Assembly: GCF_044324785.1 (NCBI RefSeq)
Contig: NZ_CP172127.1
Origin: Escherichia coli
Lineage (GTDB): Bacteria; Pseudomonadota; Gammaproteobacteria; Enterobacterales; Enterobacteriaceae
Length of the DNA: 64,000 nt
Reading direction: 5' to 3' (one strand)
Part shown: positions 1 through 38,397 of the stretch, piece after piece
How the letters are laid out: every line of letters begins with the position of its first letter
Position numbering within the stretch: the stretch's first letter is position 1
Made by a program: the position numbers and the translations under genes
Notes under the pieces: generated by a model
Told to the model about the DNA's origin: nothing
The model's database searches: none
What the model saw: only the letters and a program-made list of their open reading frames with translations

Positions 1-167
1 AAGCAGTTAAGCTAACGTGTCAGGGTAACCCTGCGTATTTGACTGAAATTCAGATCTCGATCAAAGCTGACGCCATCAACGCTCCGCTTTCTGCAAACTC
101 ATTCTTGCCACAACCACACCCAGGCAACTGTGGCAAAACCTTTGTGATTGATAAAGCAGGTTATTAA
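1..167 (+). CDS. rna: 3' end of a gene truncated by the window start, likely RNase I (frame starts at nt 3, ends ...NCGKTFVIDKAGY*)
   Basis: Stop-free frame from window start to TAA at 165-167; position upstream of rnk matches K-12 gene order. Called from synteny, not sequence recognition. Confidence 0.5.
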   Translation, partial: AVKLTCQGNPAYLTEIQISIKADAINAPLSANSFLPQPHPGNCGKTFVIDKAGY

Positions 168-316
168 TCCTCTGATTTACAAAAGACGCTAATTCGTCTT
201 CCATAAACCATGACGATTAAGATTTATACATAATGCGCTGCATTGAGGAATTCCCTGAATGTGACGCAAATCACTTCAAAGAGTGAGCAACAGTCAGTAT
301 CATCATGTGAGTTAAA

Positions 317-348
317 CCCTCGCCGCCTGACGGTGAGGGTTTTCTTTT
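317..348 (+). terminator. Intrinsic terminator-like hairpin (ccctcgccg/cggtgaggg) followed by a T-run, between rna and rnk
   Basis: Inverted repeat with 5-nt loop followed by ttttctttt, seen directly. Confidence 0.5.
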
Positions 349-396
349 GGGTATGTTTATCTGCGACACTCGCAGTACCGACGACATGGAGTAAAA

Positions 397-807
397 ATGT
401 CCAGACCAACTATCATCATTAACGACCTGGATGCCGAACGCATCGATATTCTGCTGGAGCAACCCGCCTATGCTGGTTTGCCAATCGCCGACGCGTTAAA
501 CGCAGAGTTGGATCGCGCCCAAATGTGTTCGCCAGAACAGATGCCACACGACGTGGTGACAATGAACAGCCGGGTTAAATTCCGCAATCTTAGCGATGGC
601 GAAGTGCGTGTGCGCACGCTGGTGTATCCGGCAAAAATGACCGATAGCAATACTCAGCTTTCCGTTATGGCTCCGGTAGGTGCCGCACTGCTGGGACTGC
701 GCGTTGGCGATTCCATTCACTGGGAACTTCCGGGCGGCGTTGCAACCCACCTTGAAGTGCTGGAACTCGAATACCAGCCAGAAGCTGCTGGCGACTACCT
801 GCTTTAA
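397..807 (+). CDS. rnk: Regulator of nucleoside diphosphate kinase (GreA/GreB-like), 136 aa
   Basis: Full-length ORF; protein [35 protein letters not shown]... recognised as E. coli Rnk. Confidence 0.93.
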
Positions 808-840
808 TCCCATCTGCACAAGCGATAACTCGCTTTGCCC

Positions 841-866
841 AGAGGATGCACTCGCATCCTCTTTCC
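841..866 (+). terminator. Putative rnk terminator hairpin (gaggatgc/gcatcctc)
   Basis: 8-bp inverted repeat directly after the rnk stop, followed by a short T-rich tract. Confidence 0.4.
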
Positions 867-1162
867 GCTCAAATATCAACCAGATTTATCATTTTGCTCT
901 TAAGCGCAGCATTCTAATCTGAACTGGTTATTCATCTGCGGAACCTCATATGAGCGAAGCTCTCGGTATCACTGCATTTTATATATTCATAGCCGCAATT
1001 ATTGTTGCTGCAGTGCTATACCTTGAACAACGCTGGTAGCGCCTGGTTTTATTTATTTTCCAGCTCAATAGCAAATTCAGATCAAATCAGCCTCGCAAAT
1101 CATAGATTCATAACCAATAATGTGCTGTTATGTATACATGCAAAAACAAGGAGAGAATGCTT

Positions 1163-1591
1163 ATGTACAAAACAATCATCATGCCAGTGGATGTTTTCGA
1201 AATGGAATTGAGCGACAAAGCGGTTCGCCACGCTGAATTCCTCGCCCAGGATGACGGAGTTATTCATCTACTTCACGTACTACCGGGGTCAGCCAGCCTG
1301 AGCCTGCACCGTTTTGCCGCTGATGTGCGTCGTTTTGAAGAGCATCTGCAACATGAAGCAGAAGAACGTCTGCAAACGATGGTCAGCCACTTCACCATCG
1401 ATCCTTCCCGCATTAAGCAACATGTCCGTTTTGGTAGTGTGCGGGATGAAGTTAACGAGTTAGCGAAAGAACTTGATGCAGATGTAGTAGTGATTGGTTC
1501 GCGTAACCCATCAATTTCAACTCATCTGTTGGGTTCTAACGCCTCGAGCGTAATCCGCCACGCCAATTTGCCGGTGCTGGTTGTGCGTTAA
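1163..1591 (+). CDS. uspG: Universal stress protein G (YbdQ), 142 aa
   Basis: ORF-track frame 1130..1591; start chosen at the internal ATG ([12 protein letters not shown]...) preceded by AAGGAG; sequence recognised as UspG. Confidence 0.92.
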
Positions 1592-1607
1592 TTGCCAGAA
1601 TAAGTCT

Positions 1608-1646
1608 CCCGCCCTGCCCGGAGCCATCCCGGCGGGGCTTTTTATT
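1608..1646 (+). terminator. Putative uspG terminator (GC-rich hairpin then ttttt)
   Basis: cccgccctgcccgg...cccggcggggc followed by tttttatt downstream of the uspG stop. Confidence 0.5.
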
Positions 1647-1651
1647 GCCAT

Positions 1652-1682
1652 AAAAAAGCCGCCAGGTTTGACCCCGGCGGCT
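1652..1682 (-). terminator. Putative ahpF terminator (agccgcc/ggcggct hairpin then T-run on minus strand)
   Basis: Reverse complement reads agccgccggggtcaaacctggcggctttttt, immediately downstream of the ahpF stop. Confidence 0.6.
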
Positions 1683-1711
1683 AAGCAATTGCAGGTGAAT
1701 CTTACTTCTTC

Positions 1712-3277
1712 TTATGCTGTTTTGGTGCGAATCAGGTAGTCAAAAGCACTCAGAGAGGCTTTGGCACCTTCGCCAGTGGCGATGATGATCTGCTTGTACG
1801 GAACCGTTGTACAGTCACCCGCTGCGAACACGCCTTTGACGTTGGTTTCGCATTTCGCATCAATGATAATCTCGCCCATGCGGTTACGTTCGACTGCGCC
1901 TTCGAGCCAGTTGGTGTTCGGCAGCAGACCAATCTGCACGAAAATACCGGCCAGTTCGATGTTGTGAATATCGCCGCTGACACGATCGCGATATTCCAGA
2001 CCAACGACTTTGCTGCCGTCGCCTTTCACTTCCGTAGTTTGCGCATTCAGAATAATGTCGACGTTTTTCAGGCTACGTAGTTTGTCCTGTAGAACCTGGT
2101 CGGCTTTCATTTCTGGCGCAAATTCCAGCAGAGTTACGTGCTCAACGATACCCGCCAGGTCGATTGCTGCTTCCACGCCGGAGTTACCGCCGCCGATAAC
2201 CGCTACGCGTTTGCCTTTAAACAGCGGGCCGTCGCAGTGCGGGCAGTAGGTCACGCCTTTGGTGCGATACTGATCTTCGCCCGGAACGTTCATGTTGCGC
2301 CATTTTGCACCGGTCGCCACGATAATGCTGCGTGCTTTCAGTACCGCGCCAGAAGCTGTTTCAATCTGATGCAGGCCACCTTCAACCGCTGCCGGGATCA
2401 GTTTGCTGGCGCTCTGGCTGTCGATCACATCAACGTCGTATTCATCAACGTGAACTTTCAGCGCACCTGCCAGTTTCTGGCCTTCGGTCTTCGGTACAGA
2501 AATGTAGTTTTCGATATCAACAGTATCGAGGATCTGACCACCAAAACGTTCGCCCATCAGACCGGTACGGATGCCTTTACGTGCGGAGTAAATTGCTGCC
2601 GCTGCACCCGCCGGGCCGGAACCAACGATTAATACGTCATAAGCATCACGCTTGTTCAGCTCTTCTGCCGCACGTTTTTCCGCGCCAGTATCAATTTTGG
2701 CGACGATTTCAGTCAACGTCATGCGACCCTGACCAAACTCTTTCCCGTTTACGAACACTGCCGGAACGCCCATCACGTTGCGATCGGTGATTTCGTTCTG
2801 GAAGGTGCCGCCGTCAATTGCAGTGTGCTTGATGCGCGGGTTCAGTACGCTCATCAGGTTCAGCGCCTGCACCACGTCCGGGCAGTTGTGGCAAGAGAGC
2901 GAGTAATAGGTTTCGAATTCAAAATCACCGTCAATATGGCGAATCTGCTCCAGCAGAGACTGCGCTTCTTTCGACGGATGACCACCGGTCCACAACAACG
3001 CCAGTACCAGCGAGGTAAACTCGTGGCCCAGCGGGGAACCTGCAAAACGTGGCCCCTGGTTAGAACCTGGGTTAGTGATCAGGAAAGACGGCTTACGCAC
3101 CGGCAAGCTGTTATCTTCTTTAAAGGTGACTTTGTCTGACAGTTCTGCGATTTCAGCCAACAGTTCCTTGATTTCTGCCGATTTAGCGCTGTCATCCAGC
3201 GTGGCAATTAACTCAACAGGCTTGGTCAATTTCTCAAGGTAAGCCTTGAGTTGAGTTTTCATATTTGTGTCGAGCAT
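1712..3277 (-). CDS. ahpF: Alkyl hydroperoxide reductase subunit F (NADH-dependent peroxiredoxin reductase), 521 aa
   Basis: ORF-track frame 1712..3307; start set at [17 protein letters not shown]... as in K-12 AhpF; CxxC and FAD/NAD-binding glycine motifs present. Confidence 0.95.
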
Positions 3278-3447
3278 GTTTATCTCCTGGGCTTTAAACA
3301 TCATCATGCAAGCGGCCTCTGCGGCTACCTGGATGCAGCTTGCATCATGGTGCGGGGAAGAAAATCGGGTGCCGCAGCACCCGAAGAATTAGGTGAATTT
3401 CCGAAGTATTTCGCGCCGGAGTTGGTAGCGCGAAAGACGAAGGAAAT

Positions 3448-4011
3448 TTAGATTTTACCAACCAGGTCCAGAGACGGAGCCAGAGTTGCTTCACCTTCTT
3501 TCCATTTAGCCGGGCAAACTTCACCTGGGTGAGAAGCTACGTACTGTGCTGCTTTGATTTTACGCAGCAGGTCAGACGCGTCACGGCCAATGCCTTCAGC
3601 GGTAACTTCGATTGCCTGGATGATACCCTGCGGGTCAACAACGAAGGTCGCACGGTCAGCCAGACCTTCATCTTCACGCATGTTGTCGAAGTTACGGGTC
3701 AGGGCGCCAGTCGGGTCGCCGATCATCGCATATTTGATTTTAGCGATGGTTTCAGAGCTGCTGTGCCATGCTTTGTGGGTGAAGTGAGTATCAGTAGATA
3801 CTGCGTATACGTCTACACCCAGTTTCTGCAGTTCTTCGTAGTGGTCAGCAACGTCACCCAGTTCGGTCGGGCATACGAAAGTAAAGTCAGCCGGGTAGAA
3901 GAAGAAGACGCTCCAGCGGCCTTCGGTATCTTTTTCGGTGATTTCGATGAATTCGCCGTTTTTGAATGCCTGGTTTTTAAAAGGTTTAATTTTGGTGTTA
4001 ATCAAGGACAT
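3448..4011 (-). CDS. ahpC: Alkyl hydroperoxide reductase subunit C (2-Cys peroxiredoxin), 187 aa
   Basis: [28 protein letters not shown]...FTFVCPTE... recognised as AhpC; GGAGG ribosome-binding site upstream. Confidence 0.97.
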
Positions 4012-4382
4012 CTATACTTCCTCCGTGTTTTCGATGAGATGTAAGGTAACCAATTTTTGCCGATTCGGCTAATGCGTTTCCATTATCAAATCGATAAGTT
4101 TTACCTTACAACCTTCGTAAGACAACTTTGTGAACTTTGCACCGCCAGCGGCGATAAAAAGTAAAATGGCCCCCTTTCCAGGTGACCGTGTAATCTGAAC
4201 TACCCTTTGGTATCTTCAGCGCCTGCCTGCAGGCTGAGGTGTTGCCCTTACAAAGGCAACAACGACATGGATTACAACACCCTCATAAACAAAGGGCAAT
4301 CACCTGATCTAAGCTCTTACCTATGACAGTGATAGGTTATGCCTTTTACCCGACTTTTGCACTGACTGAAAAGGACAAATTA
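4012..4382. promoter_or_regulatory. Divergent ahpC / dsbG promoter region (OxyR-controlled ahpCF promoter in E. coli)
   Basis: Intergenic region between divergent starts; OxyR control is established knowledge for ahpC; the exact site was not mapped here. Confidence 0.5.
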
Positions 4383-22553: not shown

Positions 22554-23365
22554 CCGAATCAGTAGCCCGTTTGCGTGGCGAACAGTTAACCCTCGGATAT
22601 GGCAAATATACCGTTGCGGAAAATCTGACTGTAGAAATACCTGATGGTCACTTCACGGCAATTATCGGGCCAAATGGCTGCGGTAAATCCACGTTACTGC
22701 GGACCTTAAGCCGCCTGATGACGCCTGCTCACGGGCATGTCTGGCTGGATGGCGAGCACATTCAACATTACGCCAGTAAAGAGGTTGCACGCCGGATTGG
22801 TCTGTTGGCGCAGAATGCTACCACGCCGGGCGATATCACCGTGCAGGAGCTGGTGGCGCGTGGGCGTTACCCGCATCAACCGCTGTTTACCCGTTGGCGC
22901 AAAGAGGATGAAGAAGCGGTAACGAAAGCGATGCAGGCCACGGGAATAACTCATCTGGCAGATCAAAGCGTGGATACCCTTTCTGGCGGGCAACGCCAGC
23001 GAGCGTGGATCGCGATGGTGCTAGCCCAGGAAACGGCAATTATGCTGCTCGATGAACCCACGACCTGGCTGGATATCAGTCATCAGATTGATCTACTGGA
23101 ACTGTTAAGCGAACTGAACCGCGAGAAAGGCTATACCCTGGCGGCGGTGCTGCACGATCTTAATCAGGCCTGTCGTTACGCCAGCCATTTGATTGCATTG
23201 CGGGAAGGGAAAATTGTTGCTCAGGGAGCGCCGAAGGAGATTGTCACTGCTGAATTGATCGAGCGCATTTATGGTCTGCGCTGCATGATTATTGACGATC
23301 CGGTAGCCGGAACTCCGCTTGTGGTGCCGCTCGGACGAACGGCACCTTCAACCGCAAATAGTTAA
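22550..23365 (+). CDS. fepC: Ferric enterobactin ABC transporter ATPase FepC, 271 aa
   Basis: ORF-track frame 22409..23365; start at MTESVARLRGEQL... overlapping the fepG stop; Walker A GPNGCGKST and LSGGQ signature. Confidence 0.95.
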   Translation: MTESVARLRGEQLTLGYGKYTVAENLTVEIPDGHFTAIIGPNGCGKSTLLRTLSRLMTPAHGHVWLDGEHIQHYASKEVARRIGLLAQNATTPGDITVQELVARGRYPHQPLFTRWRKEDEEAVTKAMQATGITHLADQSVDTLSGGQRQRAWIAMVLAQETAIMLLDEPTTWLDISHQIDLLELLSELNREKGYTLAAVLHDLNQACRYASHLIALREGKIVAQGAPKEIVTAELIERIYGLRCMIIDDPVAGTPLVVPLGRTAPSTANS

Positions 23366-24495
23366 ACTAAGTGGTCTGCTATCATGGCATCCTGTTTTCT
23401 GGATGCCATCGCATAGCGCAACAGCACGCCACCACAAGCCACCATCCCGCCGATCATCGCAGAAAGGATCACAATAATCGCCTTACCCGGACCGTCTTTT
23501 TTCACTGGCAATGACGGGCTTAACTGATATTTAAACGGCGTAAAATTCACATCGTTGATATTTGCTTTTGTTAACTGCTCAACAAGATACTGACGATTAC
23601 GTAATTCACCGTTCAGTTCCGCAACGTCAGTAACCGCTTTTTCAATTTCCAGTTTGCGTTCAATACCGTCTGCGCCGAGAGAAATAGAGAAATCGGGGTC
23701 ATCTTTAACGGCCTGACCATTACTGTATACGGGCTTTTTAATTCCTGCCGCGTTGGCAATGTCGAGTGAATAATTGAGGCGCTGAATGTTTGCATCAAGT
23801 TGATTTTTCGTTTTAATGCGATCCTGAGCCAGTTTTTCTTTTTCAAACTGGGTTTTGATCTCCAGTTTATTACGGACGTTTTCTATCGACTCTTTCACCA
23901 CCAACGCAGAGATATAATCGATATACCCGCTCAAAACGGTCTGCGCCTCTTCACTGGTTGGCGCGGTAAAACTGAGCGTCCAGGAGGTATACAGTGACGG
24001 TTCATCTTTTTTCTTACTGGCATTGTCATCAACCGCTTTCATTTTTTCGCTCAATGCGACGATAGCTCGATGCAAATCCAGTTCGTCGATTTTCGCCTCT
24101 TTTAATTGGTCCATCACATAAGGTGATGAGCGCAGGTACTCTTCTAGTAAGCTAACAGACTGAAACTTCTTGATAAACAGGTTAAATGCACCGCCACGGT
24201 CGATATTAACATCGAGATCAAGAACGCGGAGTTTGGTAAAGGTTTTCTCCAGGTCCTGCCACTGAATGGCTTCGGCGGGAGTAATGACGGCTGAGCTGGT
24301 CCATTTTTGCGGCAGGATGAAAGAGATCAGCAATCCTGTGCAGGCAAACGCAAAAATGACCGCCATGACCGTTTTTTTGGCCCGCCATAAAACTTCGATT
24401 AGATTAAGTAAATCAATTTCATTATTACTGGGCGACGCCAGAGGATACTCGGGAAAATGAGCGTCACTTCCCTGTTTAATATTCATTGATGACAT
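23362..24495 (-). CDS. fepE: Wzz-family polysaccharide co-polymerase FepE (O-antigen very-long-chain regulator), 377 aa
   Basis: Full ORF; convergent with fepC, both using the same palindromic TTAA for their stop codons. Confidence 0.92.
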   Translation of the reverse strand: MSSMNIKQGSDAHFPEYPLASPSNNEIDLLNLIEVLWRAKKTVMAVIFAFACTGLLISFILPQKWTSSAVITPAEAIQWQDLEKTFTKLRVLDLDVNIDRGGAFNLFIKKFQSVSLLEEYLRSSPYVMDQLKEAKIDELDLHRAIVALSEKMKAVDDNASKKKDEPSLYTSWTLSFTAPTSEEAQTVLSGYIDYISALVVKESIENVRNKLEIKTQFEKEKLAQDRIKTKNQLDANIQRLNYSLDIANAAGIKKPVYSNGQAVKDDPDFSISLGADGIERKLEIEKAVTDVAELNGELRNRQYLVEQLTKANINDVNFTPFKYQLSPSLPVKKDGPGKAIIVILSAMIGGMVACGGVLLRYAMASRKQDAMIADHLV

Positions 24496-24662
24496 GGGGT
24501 ATAACCTGAAAATGAGTCCAATAGGGGGAAATCTCCACGGCGCTCACTTTACCAGTTGGTGAGAATTATCCGAAGCTGAAGTTTGTAAATTACTCCCACT
24601 GAATGCAACATTCACTCTATTTCAGAGAAATACCTACCAAATTTATAAATTAAACAAATGAT

Positions 24663-24695
24663 AAACCCATAATTATTTTCTGTAATTATGGGTTT
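24663..24695 (-). terminator. Perfect 13-bp inverted repeat hairpin between entF and fepE
   Basis: aaacccataatta / taattatgggttt with 7-nt loop, 16 bp downstream of the entF stop; flanks are AT-rich. Confidence 0.45.
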
Positions 24696-24710
24696 ATAGA
24701 TAATATAAAT

Positions 24711-27700
24711 TTACTTATTTAGCGTCGCCCGAATAATCGGCCCAATTTTTTCAAACGCCACCGGAGAGATAATATCCACATGCGCACAATCCTGACGATA
24801 GATATCCAGCTCATCAATCCACGGTGCCCAGGCCTGTTCAGGACTCATACCTTCCTGAAGCGTGCGTTCGGCAACAAATAGCGTCGCTTTACCATCAAAC
24901 GGTACGCTATGAGCTGTCGTCAGCAGGCGCACAGCATCAGCGTAGTTGCCTTCAATGGTGGAAAACAATTCCGTGGAAGTACTTCCCTGCTGTGCCGCCA
25001 GGAAGGCTTCGCGCTCGCGGTTAATCTCCGCCAGCACTTCCGGGTCCAGACCATTAGCCTCTTTTTCCTGCCAGTTTTGCGTTTCTGGCGGCCAGGTATC
25101 CAGCAAGCCAAGAAATGCCACCTGTTCGCCACGGGCACGCAGTCGCGCCGCAATGCCCTGCGCCAGCGTACCGCCAAGTGAATAACCCAGCAGGTAATAA
25201 GGACCGTGCGGTTGTTGTTCAAGTAACGTTGCCAGATGCGCTTCGCAGACTTCATCCAGGTTTGCCGCCGTCTGCATGGGGCCATGAGGGCGCGGCGACT
25301 GAATGCCGATAATCGACCATTGTGGATCGAGATAACGCGAAAGCACGCTAAACTGCCAGGCAAAACCGGATGCCGGATGGAAACAAAACAGCGTCGGGCC
25401 ATTACCTTCACGCAACGTCAGAATGGTTTCGAATCCCATGCGCTGGGTGCTGTCTTCTTCACCATCAATAATCGTTGCCAGTTTGGCGACAGTTGACGCG
25501 ACCATCACCTGCCCCGGCGTCACCTGACGAGCAAACTGTCGACTTAACTGCGCTGCCAGTTTCATTGCCAGTAGCGAATGACCACCAAGCGCGAAGAAGT
25601 CAGCATCGGCATCCTGCACGTCACAACCCAGCAACGACGCGAATGCCGCAGCGATAATCGTTTCACTGCCCGCTTTCGGCGCACACCCCGGCGCTTGTGC
25701 TTTCAGTTCAGGCAACGGTAAGGCTTTGCGATCCAGCTTGCCGTTGGCGCTAAGAGGTAACTGTGGAAGTTGCAGCAGAACCACTGGCACCATATGTGGT
25801 GGCAATGTTTCGCGAAGCTGCGCCTGTAATGCGCTGGTATCCAACGGCAGGCCCGATTGCGACACCAGATAGCCCACCAACTGACGCGCATCACCACCAG
25901 TGGCTGCCGCCTGGTTAATCACACAGGCGTGGGTAACGGCTTGTTCGACATCCGGCAGCGCCTGCATCACGCGATCAATTTCGCCTAGTTCGATACGCTG
26001 CCCGCGAATTTTTAGCTGATCGTCACTGCGCCCGAGGTACTCCACTGCGCCGTTATCCAGCCAGCGGGCCACATCGCCGGTACGGTACATCCGTTCACCT
26101 GGGGCAAAAGGATCGGCAATAAAGCGGCTGGCGGTCAGATCGGGTCGTCCAAGATACCCCTGCGCCAGTTGAATACCGGTGAGATAGAGATCTCCCGCCA
26201 CACCCGGCGGCACCGGATGCATCATCGCATCAAGAATACGCAGGCCCGTATTCCACACCGGATAACCAATCGGCACACTGCTGCCGCGCACCTGTGCCAG
26301 TTCCTCGCCAAAAGCCGGATACCAGCTGACATCTACCGCCGCTTCCGTCGGGCCATATAGATTATGCAACGGCGCGCCGGTTAACTGTTGCCATTCGCGG
26401 CATAAATCAGCGGGTAAGGCCTCACCACTACAGAAAACCTGTTTCAACGTCGCGCAATTCTGGCGAGCGGTTTGCGGAGTCAGCGATGCAACAAATGCCG
26501 CCAGCATTGAGGGAACAAAGTGCGTGGTCGTTACACCATATTCGGCAAAGAATTGCTGCATAGCGAGCGGGTCGCGGTGCGCTTCCGGTTCAGCCATCAC
26601 CAGTTTAGCCCCGGCAATAAACGGCCAGAAAAACTCCCACACCGAGACATCAAAACTGCACGGCGTTTTTTGGGCAACGACATCTTCGCCTGTAAGCGGA
26701 TAATGATTTTGCATCCAAAGCAGGCGGTTAACGATAGCCGTCTGCCCGACCATTACCCCTTTCGGCCTGCCGGTGGAGCCAGAGGTAAAGATGATATAGG
26801 CCGTGTGGTGCGGTTGTGAAAGTTTCAGCGGCGCACTGCCCTGTGGGGTAAGCGGGGCGTTATAGCAAAGGCTGGTTAAATCTGGAACATCGGCAAAGCG
26901 CGGCAGTTGATCGTCGGTGGTGATTAACAGCGACGGACGCGCATCTTCCAGCATCATTTTCAGGCGATCGTCCGGATAGCCGGTATCCAGCGGTAACCAG
27001 GCCGCACCAGCCTCAACAATTGCATGTAGCGCCAGAGTCAAAAAGACCGAGCGCGGTAGCGCCACCGCCACGCTGTCGCCTGGTTTAACGCCGCGCTCAC
27101 GCAGCAGATTCGCCAGCGCCACCACCTGCTCGCGCATTTCCCGATAGCTGAACTGGTAACGCGCATCTGCCAGCGCCGGAGCATCCGGTGTTTTTGCCGC
27201 TTGTTCTGCCACCAGCGCGCTAAGCGTGGTTTCTGGAATCTCAACCTGAGTGGCGTTGATATGCGCTAACTGCGCATACTCACCTGGCAGCATAATATCG
27301 ACATCGCCGCACAACAGCGCCGGATCCGCGGCGAACTGGGCAATCAGCATTTTCAGGCGTTCAGCGTGTTGAATTAACGTTGGCTCAGCGTAACGCTGTT
27401 TATTGGCGAGGATCTCAATACTCAAATCACCGTGTTCATCCGGGAACAGGGCCAGTTCAAGGTCATTAACCGGACCGGTTGCCAGGGTATGGGTTTGCGT
27501 CTGAACACCAGGAATATCCAGTTGGTAATCAAATACCTTGATATTGAGTACCGGACCAAACAGCGGTTCATCATCTGCCGCTCGCCCGCTGTCACGGACA
27601 ATTTGTTCGGCATCGTAACGTTGATGACGACGCATTTTTTTCAGTTGTGCTGCCAGTCGGGTTGCCAGTTGCGGCAGCGTTTCTTGCACCGCAATGTGAA

Positions 27701-28592
27701 TCCCCAGCGGCAAAACGTTGAGCACGGGTCCGGTAGCCGTCAGCGCCGCCGAGCCCAGTCGACGCATAAAGATAAATCCGGCGGCGTAGTCCATGCGATT
27801 GCACAATCGCCCCAGCCACAAAGCCGTCAGCGCAAGGGCTAAATCGGTACGCTGCACTCCTGAAAGTTGCATAGCCAGCTGGCGGAATTCCCCGTCGGTA
27901 AACTCCAGTTTCAGGCGCAAAATATCTGCCGAAGCGCTGCGCCCCGGTAAAGGTGCCGGAGAAAGTGACGCGGGCGGTGGCAGTTGACGACGCTGTTCCG
28001 CCCAGAATGCCGCATCACGCTGCCAGGCTTCGCTTTCGCGGTATTGCTGGTACTCTTCCACTACATCAGCGAAAGGCGTAAACGGCGAAGCAGGCGTTGG
28101 TTCGCCACGCAGCAATGCGCAGTAAATATTGGCGATCTGGCGTGTAATGGCCGGGAAACTGAAGCCATCGACCAGCAAATGGTGATAACGCTGATACCAG
28201 TACCAGCGGTTATCCGCCACCTGTATCAGCTGATGAAAGACCAGTGGTTTACCACTATCGACGCGCAAATCTTGTTGCAAATCCGCCTGCATTAATGCCC
28301 GCGCAGTACCGTGCGGATCAATGTTGGTTCGCAGGTCGATAATTTCTGGCAATTCGAACGTCTGCGCATCATCGACCCACTGCCAGACTTCGCCGTTATC
28401 TTCCGTAAAACGCATCCGCAACGTATCTGCTTGCGCTAGTCCGGCAACCACCGCGCGGGCCAGTAATGGCGCATCAACCTCTCCGGTTAACTCAACGTAA
28501 TGCGCCACGCTCCAGGCGGAGGGTAAATCCGACAGTTTTTCTGCCATCCAGATGCCGGGCTGTGCGGCGACCAAAGGTAAATGCTGGCTCAT
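24711..28592 (-). CDS. entF: Enterobactin synthase component F (NRPS: C-A-PCP-TE, serine-activating), 1293 aa
   Basis: Full ORF; NRPS adenylation motifs and thioesterase GYSLGG motif; recognised sequence. Confidence 0.97.
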   Translation of the reverse strand: MSQHLPLVAAQPGIWMAEKLSDLPSAWSVAHYVELTGEVDAPLLARAVVAGLAQADTLRMRFTEDNGEVWQWVDDAQTFELPEIIDLRTNIDPHGTARALMQADLQQDLRVDSGKPLVFHQLIQVADNRWYWYQRYHHLLVDGFSFPAITRQIANIYCALLRGEPTPASPFTPFADVVEEYQQYRESEAWQRDAAFWAEQRRQLPPPASLSPAPLPGRSASADILRLKLEFTDGEFRQLAMQLSGVQRTDLALALTALWLGRLCNRMDYAAGFIFMRRLGSAALTATGPVLNVLPLGIHIAVQETLPQLATRLAAQLKKMRRHQRYDAEQIVRDSGRAADDEPLFGPVLNIKVFDYQLDIPGVQTQTHTLATGPVNDLELALFPDEHGDLSIEILANKQRYAEPTLIQHAERLKMLIAQFAADPALLCGDVDIMLPGEYAQLAHINATQVEIPETTLSALVAEQAAKTPDAPALADARYQFSYREMREQVVALANLLRERGVKPGDSVAVALPRSVFLTLALHAIVEAGAAWLPLDTGYPDDRLKMMLEDARPSLLITTDDQLPRFADVPDLTSLCYNAPLTPQGSAPLKLSQPHHTAYIIFTSGSTGRPKGVMVGQTAIVNRLLWMQNHYPLTGEDVVAQKTPCSFDVSVWEFFWPFIAGAKLVMAEPEAHRDPLAMQQFFAEYGVTTTHFVPSMLAAFVASLTPQTARQNCATLKQVFCSGEALPADLCREWQQLTGAPLHNLYGPTEAAVDVSWYPAFGEELAQVRGSSVPIGYPVWNTGLRILDAMMHPVPPGVAGDLYLTGIQLAQGYLGRPDLTASRFIADPFAPGERMYRTGDVARWLDNGAVEYLGRSDDQLKIRGQRIELGEIDRVMQALPDVEQAVTHACVINQAAATGGDARQLVGYLVSQSGLPLDTSALQAQLRETLPPHMVPVVLLQLPQLPLSANGKLDRKALPLPELKAQAPGCAPKAGSETIIAAAFASLLGCDVQDADADFFALGGHSLLAMKLAAQLSRQFARQVTPGQVMVASTVAKLATIIDGEEDSTQRMGFETILTLREGNGPTLFCFHPASGFAWQFSVLSRYLDPQWSIIGIQSPRPHGPMQTAANLDEVCEAHLATLLEQQPHGPYYLLGYSLGGTLAQGIAARLRARGEQVAFLGLLDTWPPETQNWQEKEANGLDPEVLAEINREREAFLAAQQGSTSTELFSTIEGNYADAVRLLTTAHSVPFDGKATLFVAERTLQEGMSPEQAWAPWIDELDIYRQDCAHVDIISPVAFEKIGPIIRATLNK

Positions 28593-32495: not shown

Positions 32496-32505
32496 TGCTA
32501 ACGCT

Positions 32506-32532
32506 TCCTCCCCCGATATTTGGGGGAGGAAT
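32506..32532 (+). terminator. Hairpin between fepA and entD (ttcctccccc / gggggaggaa), possible attenuator
   Basis: 10-bp inverted repeat with 7-nt loop, 10 bp after the fepA stop; no strong U-tract. Confidence 0.45.
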
Positions 32533-38355: not shown

Positions 38356-38397
38356 AAAAAACCGCTCTCATCGAATGGATGAGAGCGGACATCGTTT
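38356..38397. terminator. Bidirectional intrinsic terminator between the convergent ybdG and pheP
   Basis: ccgctctcatc / gatgagagcgg hairpin flanked by an A-run (5') and T-rich tract (3'); on the minus strand it reads hairpin then ttttttt. Confidence 0.8.

Follow-up and report, generated by a model that had tools for sequence, protein, structure and literature searches.

The entF-fepE junction

The window considered here is a stretch of 64 kb of DNA from Escherichia coli that carries, on its minus strand, the gene entF and downstream of it fepE, also called wzz(fepE). The identity of entF is given by E. coli N3 and a K-12-like strain, in which the gene layout is identical and the gene bears this annotation. 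In the spacer between these genes there is an inverted repeat that can form a hairpin, and at this site the RefSeq annotation shows no feature. The elements of the region, in the direction of transcription, are the following:

24711-28592, minus strand: coding sequence of entF, taken from the list of open reading frames, with its TAA stop codon at 24713-24711
24496-24710: spacer between entF and fepE, 215 nt, untranslated
24683-24697, minus strand: 5' arm of the hairpin, AUAAACCCAUAAUUA, whose pairing is kept with compensatory changes
24676-24682, minus strand: loop of the hairpin, CAGAAAA, 7 nt
24661-24675, minus strand: 3' arm of the hairpin, UAAUUAUGGGUUUAU
24652-24665, minus strand: U-rich tract after the GGG clamp, UUUAUCAUUUGUUU, terminator-like in the scan
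24629-24641, minus strand: counterpart of an H-NS footprint, TTTGGTAGGTATT, outside the hairpin
24560-24573, minus strand: RcsB box of the fepE promoter, TCGGATAATTCTCA, by homology to the Salmonella box
24546-24551, minus strand: -10-like hexamer TAAAGT, which is TAGAAT in Salmonella and in CFT073
23362-24495, minus strand: fepE, or wzz(fepE), the O-antigen chain-length regulator, downstream of the hairpin

The initial annotation described a perfect inverted repeat with arms of 13 bp, AAACCCATAATTA and TAATTATGGGTTT, at 24663-24675 and 24683-24695. These coordinates were borne out, and the perfect complementarity runs on to 15 bp (24661-24675 with 24683-24697) around the 7-nt loop. The distance from the entF stop codon is 15 bases to the 13-bp arm and 13 bases to the 15-bp arm; on the minus strand the 3' arm is followed by CAUUUGUUUAAUUU, and the end of the hairpin is 165 nt away from the ATG of fepE. 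The upper part of the stem is AU-rich; below it come a CCC/GGG clamp and then a base in which A residues upstream of the clamp pair with the first U residues of the tract. The clamp contributes the only G-C pairs (3 out of 15), so that 80% of the stem is A-U. The first five bases of the U-rich tract double as the outer stem pairs with the upstream A-tract; the CCC/GGG pairs abut the U tract only if this A:U extension is not counted as stem, and in the full 15-bp stem they are set back from its 3' end.

Stability of the hairpin and composition of its tail

The repeat between entF and fepE is the hairpin with the longest perfect stem in the window. First-order Markov simulations of the window (n = 100) gave perfect stems of at most 12 bp, and another 100 simulations, of 64 kb at the AT-rich composition of the spacer, gave at most 13 bp; given that no simulation reached 15 bp, chance is not a reasonable explanation for the repeat. 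The sense RNA folds in its context with -18.2 kcal/mol (z = -4.3), a value that none of 200 shuffled sequences attained, and the hairpin alone has a dG of -14.2 kcal/mol. The perfect stem had been regarded as unusual for a simple terminator; nevertheless, it is not odd, since with three G-C pairs such a length is needed to obtain the typical energy of approx. -14 kcal/mol. In a consensus scan the hairpin was the sole terminator-like site within the surrounding 600 bases. The window contains two other hairpins with perfect stems of 10 bp or more, i.e., CCGCTCTCATC-GAATG-GATGAGAGCGG at 38362-38388, and TTCCTCCCCC-GATATTT-GGGGGAGGAA at 32505-32531.

It had also been stated that the repeat has no strong U-tract. 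This was a mis-parse, because the tract starts within the annotated stem, the last three pairs of which are formed between the A-tract and the U-tract. After the GGG clamp, U residues account for 5 of the first 8 bases, and for 10 of 14. The tract following the clamp in K-12 is UUUUUUAUUUGUUU, and strains of the K-12 type read GGGUUUUUUAUUUGUUU, a textbook U tract; a run of six or seven U residues is present in K-12, Salmonella and CFT073. The tract of the window is weaker than these, as it is broken after three U residues (UUUAUC versus UUUUUU in K-12), and its tail score is -3.23 versus -4.82 for the K-12 allele. The tract varies among strains: at least 1,576 complete E. coli genomes have exactly the K-12-type tail UUUUUUAU and at least 688 have exactly that of the window type, UUUAUCAU, and further variants of the tail exist, including the U7 tract of the divergent CFT073-type allele that is described below. 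Among the 20 orthologues scored, all have from 4 to 7 U residues in the first 8 nt past the stem. From the interruption of the U tract it follows that termination in the strain of the window may be leakier than in K-12.

An open reading frame of six codons (AUG GGU UUA UCA UUU GUU UAA, MGLSFV) is present at 24650-24670 of the minus strand and starts within the 3' arm. It was rejected as a gene since a Shine-Dalgarno sequence is lacking and the stem encloses its AUG. A stop codon (TAA, TGA or TAG) is kept at its end in E. coli variants, E. albertii and two Citrobacter species, and the differences within E. coli are simple A-to-G transitions; this frame is probably a by-product of the U-rich sequence.

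Conservation of the hairpin within E. coli

The 215-nt spacer is a single-copy sequence, found in 4,889 of 5,426 complete genomes. Full identity (100%) to the spacer of the window occurs in just one of the 5,426, strain N3, isolated from a human rectal swab; in the rest the identity is 90-96%, and K-12 stands at approx. 93%. In an alignment of eight strains the hairpin is the best-conserved piece of the promoter-distal half of the spacer. Two strains show changes within the stem that maintain the pairing: isolate 07-4299, whose fepE is annotated as frameshifted, has a compensatory exchange of A-U to U-A, and in O157:H7 an A-to-G substitution turns one pair of the sense RNA into G·U.

A second, deeply divergent allele that comprises the 3' end of entF, the spacer and fepE is present in strain CFT073 (locus L094, 20250-20520) and in a further locus (L093, 1235-1510). 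In this allele the spacer has 246 nt and FepE is approx. 87% identical; its hairpin is formed by AAAACCAUAAUC...GAUUAUGGUUUU and then continues with UUUAUUC, giving a seven-U run in all. Around 537 of the 5,426 genomes showed no megablast match to the window-type spacer, and these may carry the CFT073-type allele. In E. coli PSJ-32-1 (L003, 2567-3515) a copy of IS1 is inserted approx. 70 nt after the entF stop codon, just beyond the tail of the hairpin; the insertion has eliminated most of fepE together with its promoter, and the remnant of this gene is annotated as a pseudogene fragment.

Conservation across genera and strand under selection

Beyond E. coli, one genome per species was scanned with the C-terminus of EntF, and additional loci were recovered through FepE homologues. 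The hairpin, with the core CCAUAAU...AUUAUGG, is present in all the other lineages of Escherichia that were examined, the divergent allele of the CFT073 type among them, and the same core was found in Salmonella enterica and in most of the Citrobacter species that have fepE downstream. It is located from 13 to 45 nt past the entF stop codon in these orthologues, with a core (CCATAAT/ATTATGG in the DNA) that is nearly invariant over the three genera and a loop that varies freely.

The pairing has been maintained in spite of sequence change. In the sense strand of 22 sequences, 93.9% of the cells of the alignment are paired, in contrast with 37-53% when the partners are slid by 1 to 3 columns. 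Compensatory double changes affect 6 of the 15 pairs (34 cells), and none of 500 shuffles matched the observed covariation score; the same helix was predicted independently by RNAalifold. In the reverse complement only 83.3% of the cells are paired, and an earlier set of 20 sequences gave similar values, 94.3% for the sense strand versus 84.0% for the reverse complement. The gap is due to G·U pairs in the sense RNA that become A·C mismatches in the opposite strand, and nearly all the one-sided changes are of this kind. These changes have several independent origins, i.e., O157:H7, Salmonella (twice), the C. freundii group, C. youngae, C. gillenii and C. werkmanii. Wobble pairs that are tolerated only in the sense strand indicate that what is under selection is the entF transcript, rather than an antisense RNA or a palindrome of the DNA.

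The Citrobacter amalonaticus group has kept fepE, but its hairpin at this place is GC-rich and unrelated in sequence, CCCCCGUAA...UUACGGGGG; in three of its four loci a clear U run comes after it. In the sequences compared, what is constant is a hairpin after entF, usually with a U-rich tail, and not the sequence of this hairpin. In Citrobacter sp. MGH106 (L030, 3401-3748) a GC-rich palindromic element of approx. 125 nt (…ACCCCAGTCACTTATCAGGTAAGTGACTGGGGT…) lies between the entF stop codon and the ancestral hairpin, which has lost its G-C clamp; this case is only suggestive. In the genera without fepE (Enterobacter, Kosakonia and Raoultella), and also in C. sedlakii, entF converges directly on fepC, and GC-rich palindromes are found between the two genes.

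The region from 23362 to 24710 of the window is a block of low GC content, with 43-47% for fepE and 33-36% for the spacer, versus 52-63% for entF and the fepC/fepG flanks. This block is absent from Enterobacter, Kosakonia, Raoultella and C. sedlakii, and it has the appearance of an ancient horizontal insertion, which agrees with the repression of fepE by H-NS.

The promoter of fepE

In Salmonella SL1344 transcription of fepE starts 43 nt ahead of the ATG, and positions -36 to -22 are occupied by an RcsB box, TCGGATAATTCTGA (PMC7913699); inspection of a Salmonella locus confirmed this geometry. By alignment to the SalCom start site quoted in that report, the fepE start in the window is predicted near 24537, i.e., approx. 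120-124 nt past the hairpin. In EHEC a fusion of the fepE promoter to gfp is active, and an H-NS footprint, TTTGCTGGTTATT, was mapped in the promoter region (PMC8669466), with its counterpart in the window at 24641-24629; a fepE fusion in E. coli is repressed by SdiA (PMC11619404).

Two other candidate roles for the repeat were rejected. It could have been an attenuator in the 5' untranslated region of a fepE-specific mRNA; however, the Salmonella start site and the homologous -10 and RcsB box of the window are approx. 120 nt downstream of the hairpin. A sigma-70-like promoter within the hairpin itself (ATTACA-17-TATCAT, 24658-24686, minus strand, 9 of 12 matches) was also discarded, because its -10 is not conserved, being TTTTAT in K-12; the number of matches in the sigma-70 scan was near the shuffled expectation.

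Expression of entF and fepE

E. coli databases give fes-ybdZ-entF-fepE as one operon, as quoted in three studies (PMC4145685, PMC6049941 and PMC7157518). Published expression data show that fepE is uncoupled from the genes that precede it. In CFT073, the ratio of expression in a fur mutant to that of the wild type is 388 for fes, 158 for ybdZ and 294 for entF, and 4.9 for fepE (PMC7157518 Table S1); this strain carries the orthologous hairpin with a U7 tail. In ExPEC exposed to serum, iron limitation induces fes, ybdZ and entF, but not fepE, which responds to complement (PMC4145685), and in MG1655 under mild pressure fes, ybdZ and entF increased 5.8-, 3.5- and 13.7-fold, respectively, with fepE unlisted (PMC6049941). 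The 4.9-fold effect of Fur on fepE implies that the insulation is incomplete. Unequal decay of the mRNA, or termination by Rho within the spacer, could also account for the difference between entF and fepE.

In the tables consulted from published 3'-end and RNA-interaction mapping there is no mapped RNA 3' end at the hairpin, and neither entF nor fepE is included, probably because the operon was repressed by Fur in the media used. A search of the literature for a described entF terminator retrieved nothing relevant.

The repeat as a probable intrinsic terminator

We consider it likely that the repeat is an intrinsic, i.e., factor-independent, terminator: the Fur-regulated fes-ybdZ-entF transcript would end at it, and fepE would be insulated except for a small read-through. 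The stem-loop is found on the sense strand, after the stop codon in the orientation of the gene and with a U-rich tract 3' of the stem, and its sense-strand pairing has been kept in evolution. Termination at this site is inferred from structure, conservation, strand of selection and U-rich tail, all of which come from the present analysis, together with the fepE promoter and the uncoupled expression, which are taken from the literature. Of the two options offered by the initial annotation, termination or attenuation of the transcript is the one favoured by its position, by covariation, by the G·U wobble of the sense strand, by the U-rich tail and by the published uncoupling of entF and fepE; the other, a protein-binding site, is disfavoured since the DNA palindrome has not been kept.

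According to this interpretation, once RNA polymerase has moved beyond the stop codon of entF, the emerging transcript would fold into the CCC/GGG clamp and the AU-rich upper stem, the base of the hairpin would be lengthened by pairs between the A-tract and the U-tract just upstream of the U-rich stretch, and most transcripts would be released there. As a consequence of this release, fepE would be expressed mainly from its own promoter, controlled by H-NS, RcsB and SdiA and located approx. 120 nt further on, and the iron-dependent read-through into fepE would be only small.

The main rival of the terminator is that the hairpin is chiefly a stability element of the 3' end: transcription would stop elsewhere, for instance by the action of Rho in the spacer, 3'-to-5' exonucleases would trim the RNA back, and the hairpin would protect the entF mRNA. 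Selection on the sense-strand RNA fits this proposal as well as it fits termination, and the weakened U tract of the window strain and the 215-nt untranslated stretch of the spacer are also compatible with it. Nevertheless, a hairpin devoted purely to stability would not need a U-rich tail, and such a tail is present in every one of the orthologues scored, as a run of U6-U7 in K-12, Salmonella and CFT073, and even after most of the replacement hairpins of the C. amalonaticus group. This explanation accounts for selection at the RNA level but leaves the conserved U tract unexplained, and we regard it as unlikely.

Another proposal is that the palindrome works as DNA, either as the site of a dimeric regulator or as a nucleation point for H-NS, and that it controls fepE or blocks transcription coming from entF. 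A perfect 15-bp palindrome in an AT-rich spacer bound by H-NS, with a core nearly invariant in three genera, speaks in its favour; however, the one-sided substitutions preserve the sense G·U pairs and break the symmetry of the DNA, and some Citrobacter have an unrelated GC-rich hairpin in its place. In addition, the hairpin is approx. 124 nt upstream of the predicted start of fepE, and the mapped footprint of H-NS and the box of RcsB occupy other parts of the spacer. As for Fur, no part of the hairpin matches the 19-bp consensus GATAATGATAATCATTATC at more than 12 of 19 positions, a score met 117 times in the window, where the best-scoring Fur-box-like sites elsewhere reach 14-16, and a Fur box was therefore rejected. 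A role as a DNA site is thus very improbable.

Many enterobacterial sRNAs derive from the 3' ends of mRNAs and share their terminator. This is the general ground for a further alternative, in which the hairpin would be the terminator of an sRNA cut from the 3' end of entF, or else a part of a regulated attenuator, and the alleles of the K-12 type have the long U tail of the sort that Hfq prefers. Against it, no Rfam family was found at the curated threshold; with Rfam 15 at a permissive E-value, the best matches had 13-22 bits versus gathering thresholds of 47-195, and represent sub-threshold noise. With only 13 nt between the stop codon and the hairpin, the body of any such sRNA would be coding sequence; regarding an attenuator, no alternative conserved pairing was found, and the literature search revealed no published evidence for either. 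There is very little chance that this alternative is correct.

Finally, short inverted repeats are common in AT-rich sequence such as this spacer, but the covariation, with compensatory changes over three genera, and the copy number already refute an origin by chance or as what is left of a repeated or mobile element, and no simulation reached this stem length. REP/BIME sequences and other repeated or mobile elements were discarded, since the spacer and the 33-mer tail occur in a median of one place per genome and the core pattern occurs once in the window. The hairpin resembles the REP/BIME extragenic palindromes in that it is a palindrome in an intergenic spacer, and GC-rich palindromes of that kind exist at the convergent entF/fepC junction of the genera without fepE; in contrast with them, the entF hairpin is single-copy and AT-rich, is followed by a U tract, and is devoid of the REP consensus.

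Comparison with known terminators

The hairpin has much in common with the canonical intrinsic terminators that have an extension between the A-tract and the U-tract (L-shaped or bidirectional): a stem-loop is followed by a U-rich tract right after a stop codon, the A-tract upstream forms pairs with the beginning of the U tract, the energy of approx. -14 kcal/mol is in the usual range, and the pairing is kept by compensatory and wobble changes. This putative terminator differs from them in that its stem is unusually AU-rich, and so long and perfect, and in that the U tract of the window strain is interrupted. As a terminator, the entF hairpin belongs to the class most often met in bacteria; its sole peculiarity is the AU-rich stem, and it is new only as an instance.

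It can also be compared with the partial terminators found within operons, given that it is placed between two genes that are described as belonging to one operon, and that fepE responds approx. 60-fold less than the upstream genes to their derepression, yet it does respond (PMC7157518). The difference in this case is that fepE has its own, separately regulated promoter, and the hairpin would be more an insulator than a device that sets the ratio between genes.

Implications for fepE regulation

The U tract is polymorphic in E. coli, and for this reason lineages could differ in the iron-dependent feed-through into fepE. That the terminator is a tunable leak, through which lineages feed iron starvation into fepE to differing degrees, is a speculative proposal that we hold as doubtful; if it were true, the production of very long O-antigen, and hence the resistance to serum and complement, would be coupled to iron limitation to a different extent in each lineage.

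A conserved terminator together with a separate promoter argues against fepE being the simple fourth gene of the fes operon, and would explain the different behaviour of fepE and entF in transcriptome studies. The finding amounts to a small correction of the operon map, in which fepE, the regulator of O-antigen chain length that is relevant for virulence, would be a largely independent unit with a weak iron-dependent read-through. For the question of how iron limitation affects the length of the O-antigen, the hairpin provides a defined element to mutate.
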